Origin: a virus
Lineage: Duplodnaviria; Heunggongvirae; Uroviricota; Caudoviricetes
DNA length: 8,511 bases
IMG/VR virus record: IMGVR_UViG_2547132273_000021
Direction: 5' to 3' (one strand)
Shown: positions 6,371 through 7,862 of the stretch, piece by piece
How the letters are laid out: each line of letters begins with the position of its first letter
How positions within the stretch are numbered: the first letter of the stretch is position 1
Notes under the pieces: generated by a model
The model's input: only the letters and a program-made list of their open reading frames with translations
What the model was told of the DNA's origin: nothing
Databases searched by the model: none
Program-made: the position numbers and the translations under genes

Positions 6371-7117
6371 ATGTCACAGTGCTTAGCGATGCTTCAGAAA
6401 CTTAATCAGCGTGTTAAGGCTGGGAAGAATTTCTGCGGGAGTTTTGATAACCGGAACAATCCGCCTGTCTTCATAGAGCTCACTAGCTTTCAGTGCGTTA
6501 AAAAAGTTATCTACGGCTTGTTGGTAACTTCGTGCTTGTCTGCTGCTCAGGTGAGGGCGCAGTCTTCTGAAATCGTCTCTGGATATATGTGGCATATCCC
6601 GTTTTCCGTCTCGGCAACCCTCGCGGAAGGCGTCAAGGATCAGGAACAATTCATCAGCGACGGCATTGAACTCTTTCCGCTTATCTCGATTTTTGGCAAG
6701 CCAGTGTCCGAGCCAGGCGCCAAGTCCAAAAGCACTAACCGTCCAGATGAAGGTAACAAGGCGCGGGTTGGTATTGAACAGAAGAACAAACTCACTCCAG
6801 ATGATTCCCATAATTTCTGGCGACTCCTTTTTGTTCAGGTAGCGGCATTTCTTGTTGCATTTCCTGTTGGTGCTTATTTCAGCATGCGGGCAAATCTTCG
6901 CAATGACTGGCGTAAGCATATCCAGAAAGGAAGACGCCTGAAAGTACCCGTACTGGCTATGTTCTCCATCACAGGCATCAGCGATCGCATTAAACCTCGA
7001 TCTTGGCAGATATGGGAACGGAAGCATTGGTTTCAGGATATGCGGATATGCCATGGGATCGAGGCTGCTTATAGGGATGCATGGCTCTGGAAAAAGCGCG
7101 TAACTGAGAAGTGCTGA
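6371..7117 (+). CDS. Hypothetical protein, 248 aa, basic and Trp-rich with one hydrophobic segment; uncertain
   Basis: ATG at 6371 with GGAGG Shine-Dalgarno and 6-nt spacer, 1 nt after the cro stop; ends 37 nt before the Rha start, so it fits the operon. The antisense frame in the same codon register is also open (see next feature), so strand assignment is not settled. Confidence 0.4.
   Translation: MSQCLAMLQKLNQRVKAGKNFCGSFDNRNNPPVFIELTSFQCVKKVIYGLLVTSCLSAAQVRAQSSEIVSGYMWHIPFSVSATLAEGVKDQEQFISDGIELFPLISIFGKPVSEPGAKSKSTNRPDEGNKARVGIEQKNKLTPDDSHNFWRLLFVQVAAFLVAFPVGAYFSMRANLRNDWRKHIQKGRRLKVPVLAMFSITGISDRIKPRSWQIWERKHWFQDMRICHGIEAAYRDAWLWKKRVTEKC
6383..6811 (-). CDS. Alternative antisense ORF: single-pass membrane protein, 142 aa, with a charged cytoplasmic domain
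   Basis: ATG at 6809-6811 with AAGGAG about 12 nt upstream. Protein-like sequence: a TM helix (IIWSEFVLLFNTNPRLVTFIWTVSAFGLGAWLGHWLA) followed by a charged domain. Fully embedded antisense in 6371-7117; may be a shadow ORF. Confidence 0.3.
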   Translation of the reverse strand: MGIIWSEFVLLFNTNPRLVTFIWTVSAFGLGAWLGHWLAKNRDKRKEFNAVADELFLILDAFREGCRDGKRDMPHISRDDFRRLRPHLSSRQARSYQQAVDNFFNALKASELYEDRRIVPVIKTPAEILPSLNTLIKFLKHR

Positions 7118-7154
7118 ACCGTGATCCCAATAATTTATCCGTAAGGAGGTATCA

Positions 7155-7862
7155 GTGAACACCGCAATTTTTAACGATAAAGCATCCATGACCAGCGTTG
7201 AGATCGCAGAGCTGGTGGGTAGTCAGCACTCAGATGTTAAACGTAGTATCGAACGCCTGGTTGCTAAAAACGTCATCCGGAAACCGCCAATGGCTGTTTC
7301 CGAGAAAATCAATAACTTAGGTTTTAAAGTTCAATATGAGCATTACCTGTTTGAAGGAGAACAAGGTAAGCGCGACAGCATCATTGTCGTCGCACAGCTC
7401 TGCCCTGAATTCACTGCTCGCCTGGTAGATCGCTGGCGCGAACTGGAAGAACAGATCCGTAAGCCAATGAGCGAAATCGAAATGGTTGCTGCGATGGCTC
7501 TTGAAGCCGTTCGTCAGCAAAAACGCCTCGACCAGATGGAAGAGAAAGTCACCCACGTTACTGAAACCGTCGAGCAAATCAAAAGAGGCACCATACGCGA
7601 TGGTTATGCAGGCTATCGTCAGCTGGTGGCGAAAACGGGTATGTCAGATGCGAAATGCCGCAATCCGGTGAACGCATATCAGATCCCTACCGACACCCAT
7701 GAATTTATGACGCCGGATGGATTGTTGTCTCGTCGCGCGATTGTTGCAGTAGAACCCTTCATGTCTGCTTTTCATCGCATGATGAGTGAAGCAGAACCAC
7801 GAGGTACTCGCTGGTATCACCCGAAAATGGGGTTGTTCCAGGCGCTGGGCTGGCAGGTGTAA
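7155..7862 (+). CDS. rha: Phage regulatory protein Rha family (antirepressor-like), 235 aa
   Basis: GTG start at 7155 with a strong TAAGGAGG Shine-Dalgarno at 7142-7149. N-terminal motif MTSVEIAELVGSQHSDVKRSIERL followed by a YxxYLFEGEQGK...IIVVAQL region typical of the Rha domain. Stop TAA at 7860-7862. Confidence 0.85.
   Translation: MNTAIFNDKASMTSVEIAELVGSQHSDVKRSIERLVAKNVIRKPPMAVSEKINNLGFKVQYEHYLFEGEQGKRDSIIVVAQLCPEFTARLVDRWRELEEQIRKPMSEIEMVAAMALEAVRQQKRLDQMEEKVTHVTETVEQIKRGTIRDGYAGYRQLVAKTGMSDAKCRNPVNAYQIPTDTHEFMTPDGLLSRRAIVAVEPFMSAFHRMMSEAEPRGTRWYHPKMGLFQALGWQV

Follow-up and report, generated by a model that had tools for sequence, protein, structure and literature searches.

Temperate phages carry antisense transcription across their early operon, as with the lambda PRE transcript running through cro, oop RNA and P22 sar, and lambdoid immunity regions encode membrane proteins expressed in the lysogen, such as lambda RexB and SieB. 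Antisense overlapping coding genes are a kind of arrangement that has already been described, that is contested and that is rare in phages and bacteria. In Escherichia coli O157:H7 such genes have been reported, for example ano and three genes (PMC9927249; PMC5960689; bioRxiv 10.1101/2020.11.18.388249). A survey with the dnaK antisense open reading frame (ORF) ('NAD-GDH', PF10712) as its main example concluded that long antiparallel ORFs are mostly not under negative selection and are without effect on the selection of the gene they face (bioRxiv 10.1101/724807). The present analysis concerns a stretch of 8,511 nucleotides (nt), referred to here as the window (IMG/VR record IMGVR_UViG_2547132273_000021), which is the immunity region of the Stx2e phage phiP27 (99.8% identity to phiP27; prophages in four E. 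coli chromosomes are 100% identical to the window). The subject is a pair of genes, here named P (plus strand) and M (minus strand), which lie downstream of a cro-like gene and of which M appears to be nested antisense within P.

Comparison of homologous loci makes it probable that this is a true nested antisense gene pair, in which two protein-coding genes, one on each strand and in the same codon register, would have about 430 nt in common and the overlapped part of P would be translated but barely constrained. An earlier note on the window had offered three explanations for this segment, namely a shadow ORF, a moron embedded in antisense and true sense-antisense overlapping genes, of which the third is favoured by the comparative evidence; the second holds insofar as the minus gene behaves like an embedded moron. 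The elements on which the argument turns are given below, with lengths in amino acids (aa).

6371-7117, plus strand: P, a 248-aa ORF of the early rightward operon, codons 5-147 of which cover all of M in antisense and in register with it.
6360-6373, plus strand: translation start of P as read in the sequence, consisting of GGAGG, the cro stop TGA, 1 nt and ATG (a coupling junction).
6383-6811 (stop codon included), minus strand: M, 142 aa, with an N-terminal membrane helix and a four-helix bundle, the true core of phiP27 L13, recognized by its ratio of nonsynonymous to synonymous substitution (dN/dS) and codon-position pattern.
6824-6829, minus strand: Shine-Dalgarno (SD) sequence of M, AAGGAG, 12 nt ahead of the ATG and conserved in most lineages.
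6788-6820, plus strand: juxtamembrane motif of P, KLTPDDSHNFW, which overlaps M codons 1-8 and the ribosome-binding spacer.
6818-6883, plus strand: putative transmembrane helix of P, codons 150-171, where plus-frame variation is synonymous and hydrophobic-conservative.
6884-7117, plus strand: basic, tryptophan-rich C-terminal tail of P, type A, recognized by dN/dS and by stand-alone homologues.

The plus ORF (6371-7117, 248 aa) and the minus ORF (6383-7189, 268 aa) had been delimited correctly in the earlier note, and simple arithmetic bears out that they share codon boundaries, the lowest coordinate of the codons of both ORFs being congruent to 2 modulo 3. The GGAGG at 6360-6364, six nt ahead of the plus ATG and directly at the end of cro, and the internal minus ATG at 6811-6809 with AAGGAG at 6829-6824 can likewise be read in the sequence as described. 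The doubly open stretch is real but covers 6386-7114, that is 243 rather than 249 codons, because plus codons 2 (TCA, 6374) and 5 (TTA, 6383) are antisense stops. Its lack of TTA, CTA and TCA goes beyond chance, as had been supposed: with M taken as a real gene and under the codon usage of flanking phage genes, the 17 leucine and 8 serine codons of M would leave the plus frame open with a probability of 0.0018.

Homologues were compared over at least 14 lineages saturated at synonymous sites (16 when Serratia and Pectobacterium are counted), from genera that include Escherichia, Klebsiella, Enterobacter, Yersinia, Providencia and Morganella. Over plus codons 5-132 the p-distances at codon positions 1, 2 and 3 were 0.376, 0.127 and 0.194, with the peak at plus position 1, which is the wobble position of the minus frame, and over plus codons 148-248 they were 0.232, 0.168 and 0.414, with the peak at the plus wobble position 3. 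A sliding window placed the switch between strands at about codon 147, which is the start codon of M. By the method of Nei and Gojobori (NG86), dN/dS in the overlap was 0.19 when read as M and 1.01 when read as P, and in the tail (codons 148-248) it was 0.17 when read as P and 0.99 when read antisense. The p-distance pattern, the switch point and the dN/dS values argue that both M and the plus tail (6812-7117) are real coding sequence, and on this comparative evidence M is a genuine gene. It had been thought unclear which strand codes; each strand appears to own one segment, the minus strand M and the plus strand the tail. The odd composition that had been remarked on in the plus product belongs to its N-terminus, which looks like the antisense of a real gene, while the tail is constrained coding sequence. 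In the overlap, purifying selection is clear for the M protein from the ratio given above, and for P only stop purging and a lower synonymous turnover at M codons 2-20 (0.37 vs 0.55 elsewhere) are seen.

In a same-register antisense arrangement the only M codons that put a stop into the plus frame are TTA, CTA and TCA. Among 14 lineages, in which M third-position distances were 0.36-0.71, TTA or CTA was used for 0 of 214 leucine codons of M and TCA for 0 of 116 serine codons. Flanking phage genes use TTA/CTA for 22.5% of leucine and TCA for 21.8% of serine, and in stand-alone M relatives without a partner the stop-generating codons make up 38% of leucine and 30% of serine codons; five more distant ones (L040, L078, L080, L081 and L085) contain 3-12 antisense stops and have no partner ORF. 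The probability of finding no stop-generating codon was 0.001-0.008 per lineage, and the avoidance holds in the AT-rich Providencia lineages, where the GC content of third codon positions is 0.40. The codon usage of the real gene does not account for the missing stops, as it would for a shadow ORF.

Homology searches were run with both translations as the earlier note had proposed; the 268-aa minus product retrieved only itself, and the plus product retrieved eight full-length homologues (38-62% identity), most of them directly after a cro gene with a gap of often only 1-2 nt. In these eight loci the plus ORF is open throughout, and the same-register minus frame is open only from plus codon 5 to about codons 151-157. 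The conserved minus product in the homologues is 137-143 aa long, starts with MGIIWSEF and ends with KHR, and AAGGAG lies ahead of it; start, stop and length of M are all kept. The minus product had been said to look like a bona fide membrane protein, which stands for the gene, its real size being 142 aa (6383-6811) and not 268 aa.

As a control for ascertainment, DNA-level searches independent of gene calling were seeded with the M protein, and these gave loci from E. coli, Klebsiella, Enterobacter, Phytobacter, Yersinia, Providencia and Morganella, every one of which has zero antisense stops in M and a plus ORF of 215-290 codons. A first scan of contigs with a narrow M alignment gave no match and a broader alignment worked. 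A profile search gave 15 clusters in which gene callers had chosen M, and elsewhere callers gave relatives of 141-147 aa; in the two caller-chosen-M core loci that were fetched (Pectobacterium and Serratia) the plus frame is fully open, over 284 and 269 codons. Neither M nor the plus frame that crosses it is interrupted in any of 29 distinct core loci or in L086 and L087. The length and position of both ORFs are conserved across diverged homologues, which is a feature of gene pairs. A shadow ORF is contradicted for the plus frame across M by the openness of both frames in diverged homologues, by codon usage that offers no explanation and by purifying selection on both M and the tail, and the finding named in the earlier note as a refutation, synonymous variation fitting one strand only with the other frame interrupted in homologues, was not what was obtained. 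A control for positional effects was provided by other morons on the minus strand of the cro-rha slot, none of which is spanned by a plus ORF; a general need to translate across any moron of the slot (anti-polarity) was rejected on these grounds.

Each gene also has its own conserved start signals at the level of sequence, GGAGG with a cro-coupled ATG for P and AAGGAG with ATG for M. Most of the 30 distinct core loci have an SD and ATG 6-18 nt beyond the M stop, the first ATG of the open frame lying elsewhere in a few, and in eight lineages the start and the stop of the preceding gene together form the sequence GAGGyGTGAyATG. At the other end of the overlap, all three codon positions of the segment KLTPDDxHxFW are nearly invariant, and as judged by this pattern the KLTPDDSHNFW segment is under double constraint.

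Of the other explanations, the one that survives best, though it is judged improbable, is that of two back-to-back genes with a short overlap, in which M is a genuine gene, a short P is initiated internally, at an unrecognized or non-canonical start near codon 112-140, and the plus strand at 6371-6700 is untranslated, its frame being open on grounds that have nothing to do with translation. It draws on a stand-alone short P of 112 aa which has its own GGAGGGG and GTG directly after cro, with no M gene and no N-terminal extension, on a GTG or ATG at P codon ~112 in 12 of the 14 lineages, and on an N-terminal part of P that lacks amino-acid constraint and is modelled with low confidence. This GTG or ATG is, however, the complement of the M His36 codon; it lacks an SD, L015 and L016 do not have it, and an internal start there was rejected; no conserved in-frame start was found between P codon ~112 and residue M172 in the aligned lineages. 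Neither do back-to-back genes account for the 0 of 330 leucine and serine codons of M that are stop-generating in 14 saturated lineages, against about 22% expected, given that codon bias is no explanation and that stand-alone relatives and flanking genes use those codons freely, nor for the SD and ATG just past the M stop in most loci, cro-coupled in eight lineages. The antisense strand of the short P still has the M ribosome-binding site and about 10 M codons, and the short form (locus L084) keeps the KLTPDDSHNFW motif; it may be a deletion derivative.

Far less likely still, and contradicted by the comparative data, is that the minus gene alone is real, as phiP27 L13 of 223 aa, with the whole plus ORF as its shadow. 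At this place the phiP27 entries of GenBank and RefSeq list the minus ORF alone, and the N-terminal part of the plus product does resemble antisense sequence, but the minus frame upstream of the M ATG is closed in every other lineage and the plus tail (dN/dS 0.17) has stand-alone homologues, a membrane helix that is conserved and two tail types, which are conserved too. The part of the minus ORF concerned is the following.

6812-7189, minus strand: non-coding stretch by which the minus ORF is prolonged at its 5' end, the shadow of the P tail, with in-frame stops in all homologues.

This extension accounts for the 268-aa ORF and for the 223-aa L13 annotation. In all homologues the minus frame closes 5-11 codons upstream of the M ATG and has stops elsewhere in the tail too, so that it is the extension, closed in all lineages other than that of phiP27, which behaves as a shadow ORF would in diverged homologues. 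The chance of an open antisense frame over the 101 tail codons is about 0.06, and the extension is plausibly a chance feature confined to the phiP27 lineage; of the ~750-nt doubly open stretch, about 300 nt are an accident of that lineage.

That only the plus gene is real and the minus ORF its shadow, as in the annotation by the Prokaryotic Genome Annotation Pipeline (PGAP), is the least credible of all and is likewise contradicted by the comparison, for although the plus ORF is consistent with the operon and is called by gene finders in most homologous loci, codons 5-146 vary most at the minus wobble position (dN/dS 0.19 on the minus strand vs 1.01 on the plus), the start, SD, stop and length of M are conserved, its AlphaFold2 (AF2) model reaches a predicted local distance difference test (pLDDT) score of 84, and M-family genes occur elsewhere without any antisense ORF.

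Under the nested gene pair, then, the 248-aa P most likely reads antisense through the whole of M, as far as can be judged from sequence, and a number of points weigh against this. The naive dN/dS of P in the overlap is biased, the synonymous sites of P being the first codon positions of M, and the synonymous divergence (dS) of M is the fairer measure; M dS in codons 27-142 (1.15) is about equal to the dS of the P tail (1.26), which suggests that the P amino acids are hardly constrained in the overlap. No amino-acid-level constraint on the N-terminal part of P was detected beyond stop avoidance. The AF2 model of P has a mean pLDDT of 41, with residues 1-143 below 45, and the M sequence accounts for most of the hydrophobicity of P residues 46-62 (synonymous recoding of M, mean z 0.67), for which reason a selected signal peptide or anchor in the N-terminal part is not claimed. 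The existence of a short P without extension or M indicates that the extension is dispensable for the P core, and internal, non-canonical initiation in the long forms would still be compatible with the sequence. A joint probability of 10^-36 for the absence of stops applies only if the lineages are independent; they are related, and the figure is overstated. A scan for consensus promoters called no leftward promoter, including the putative element for M described below, and literature searches found no expression data for phiP27 or its relatives on either strand.

The M protein was modelled by AF2 from 14 sequences with a pLDDT of 84.4 as a long N-terminal helix, which includes the hydrophobic segment, followed by a four-helix bundle. 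Structure searches matched only generic bundles in the PDB and the protein itself in BFVD. Neither M nor P gave an informative hit against the Pfam, PHROGs, PADLOC and NCBIfam profiles, and no significant match of either to known defence or exclusion families was found in these; distant M relatives gave weak hits only to phrog_13469 and phrog_34525, both without assigned function. Expression of M could be directed by the following element.

6873-6881, minus strand: TGaAATAAG, which may be the extended -10 element of a leftward M promoter, identified by eye in aligned upstream regions of 14 lineages.

Conserved elements similar to TGnAATAAG occur within P codons 168-171, some 60 nt ahead of the ATG of M. 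The scan gave no more than a weak terminator-like site for M. Several of the stand-alone M-family genes lie immediately downstream of a repressor with HTH_3 and Peptidase_S24 domains, on the same strand and divergent from cro, and a further one follows an Arc-like repressor; the M of the nested cassette is likewise on the strand of the repressor. As M relatives are found directly downstream of cI on the repressor strand, M is probably made in the lysogen, and at the level of a guess it could be an exclusion or defence-type membrane protein. It should also be noted that in L079 (1857-2381) an M-like gene directly downstream of cI is covered by an antisense ORF of 154-165 codons with a hydrophobic N-terminus and a C-terminal membrane helix, so the nested arrangement may occur outside the cro-proximal position also.

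For P, AF2 placed a helix at residues 143-183 with low confidence. Its tail occurs as two conserved types, type A as in the phiP27 window and type B in Providencia, Morganella and others. Two stand-alone proteins of 58-59 aa (P0043 and P0045) are homologues of P residues 191-240, comprising a hydrophobic segment and a basic, tryptophan-rich tail, and resemble small membrane peptides. In L077 (1779-2429) an M/P cassette with a type B tail adjoins genes that from their sequence alone look like tail or baseplate genes; P starts there 60 nt inside the 3' end of M and has a signal-peptide-like N-terminus, MKNIKPVIASAAAILLSTIIVLPCSAQ. A 20-nt direct repeat of 85% identity lies within P, at 6652-6671 and 6976-6995, and encodes ISDGIE and ISDRIK in the plus frame. 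That P is an early lytic membrane effector is a guess.

From these observations a scheme can be proposed in which M is the older gene, with its own AAGGAG and ATG and a probable extended -10 promoter inside P. P would be expressed from the early rightward operon, made from PR after induction, with translation from 6371 coupled to the stop of cro. Ribosomes would then read about 146 codons antisense through all of M to reach the constrained part of P, its last ~110 residues with KLTPDDxHxFW, the membrane helix and the basic, tryptophan-rich tail. Amino-acid selection in the overlap would be that of M, with the loss of M codons that give stops in P (TTA, CTA, TCA) as the only selection detectable for P; because nothing but this stop purging can be detected there, the N-terminal part of P is suggested to be a translated, weakly constrained extension overprinted on M. 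As M relatives without overlap and a P core without the extension both exist, the simplest history would be that the P frame was extended upstream across a pre-existing M and was then kept open. Rightward transcription from PR after induction would collide head-on with the expression of M and shut it off.

A more speculative and rather doubtful extension of this scheme is that M and P form a coupled two-state module, in which the M mRNA would both encode the lysogen membrane protein and act over its full length as an antisense RNA on the 5' 60% of the P message, and transcription of P from PR and its translation would extinguish M. In favour of such a module, M and P seem to move as a pair into other surroundings, to a place after cI in L079 and close to tail genes in L077. 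If it were so, the nesting would be a hard-wired exclusive switch between a lysogenic and a lytic membrane effector, P might be toxic, and the module would correspond, with protein-coding genes, to antisense control of the hok/sok or sar/oop type.

The M/P segment is flanked by a cro-like gene on one side and a Rha/Ant gene on the other, with a divergent LexA/CI-type repressor upstream.

6142-6369, plus strand: cro-like gene upstream of P, which matches phrog_4749 and whose equivalent in other loci hits P22_Cro or YdaS.

Its stop TGA (6367-6369) is separated from the plus ATG by 1 nt. Existing records disagree on the segment, phiP27 in GenBank and RefSeq having only the minus strand annotated (L13, 223 aa) and PGAP a plus-strand gene alone (6389-7117). 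The M/P locus is carried by phiP27 and by no other of 50,697 phage records. A cro-to-rha query found a partial match in 292 E. coli genomes, and only 5 hold the place with a coverage of at least 80%; in four other E. coli prophages that were examined the slot holds other minus-strand genes (two, one of the bssS family), a different plus-strand ORF (one) or nothing (one). M shows the variable presence in an otherwise syntenic slot that is a feature of morons. The slot (6142-7155 in the window; loci L002-L005) is a cargo hot-spot, occupied by a bssS-family gene, by a minus-strand gene of 97 aa or by a plus-strand gene of 130 aa, or left empty. No report on the M/P locus was found in literature searches, the Rfam scan of the whole window gave no match and the repeat search found nothing relevant.

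Further observations were made elsewhere in the window. A second same-register antisense pair, a 130-codon plus ORF (3532-3924) against a 212-aa minus gene (3529-4167), is probably an ordinary shadow ORF, and a 150-aa plus ORF (4825-5277) spans the whole of a minus-strand HTH-domain gene (4836-5270) in a different codon register. The repressor ORF (5374-6105, minus strand) is open over 243 aa and is started at 6030 (218 aa) by PGAP and the phiP27 record; its extra 25 codons reach into the PR/operator region. In the early-left prophage region a gene for an SPFH-domain protein (2340-3352, minus strand) and, after it, a hydrophobic ORF of 62 aa may form a further accessory membrane module.

When set beside the described systems, the locus is closest in appearance to the antisense genes of O157:H7, where likewise an ORF is embedded antisense in a coding gene of an enterobacterial genome and pipelines keep only one of the two. 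Those cases reportedly are short ORFs of narrow distribution inside an older 'mother' gene, whereas at M/P the embedded gene is the older and better conserved one and it is the overlapped part of the enclosing P that appears young and unconstrained. The evidence also differs in kind, resting for O157:H7 on RNA sequencing and ribosome profiling and for M/P on comparison over at least 14 lineages of several genera. Accepted antisense overlaps rest mainly on expression data for short ORFs, and M/P thus adds a comparatively supported case, in which an entire 142-codon gene is nested antisense and both frames are preserved through saturation of synonymous sites in several genera, with M-family members without a partner and the short P without M as natural controls. 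It also exposes a blind spot of annotation, as every pipeline reports one gene, and different ones for the same DNA (L13 vs PGAP), so that both families are represented only patchily in databases. Thanks to the shared register, a substitution that inactivates either gene can be chosen so as to leave the protein of its partner unchanged, which makes the biology of the pair directly testable.

With the dnaK antisense ORF the locus has in common a long antisense ORF and a significant avoidance of stops on the strand taken as non-coding; it differs in that the open frame runs on into a tail that lacks a start of its own and is under purifying selection, and in that M-family members without a partner do not avoid the stop-generating codons. 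M recalls RexB and SieB as a small membrane protein on the repressor strand, its stand-alone relatives lying just after cI like rexAB in lambda, but profile and structure searches found no similarity of sequence, profile or fold to either. As with PRE, oop and sar, leftward transcription at this locus would oppose the rightward early operon by cro and could enforce exclusive lysogenic or lytic expression; the overlapped antisense RNA in those systems is non-coding, whereas the antisense segment of M/P is a complete protein-coding gene.

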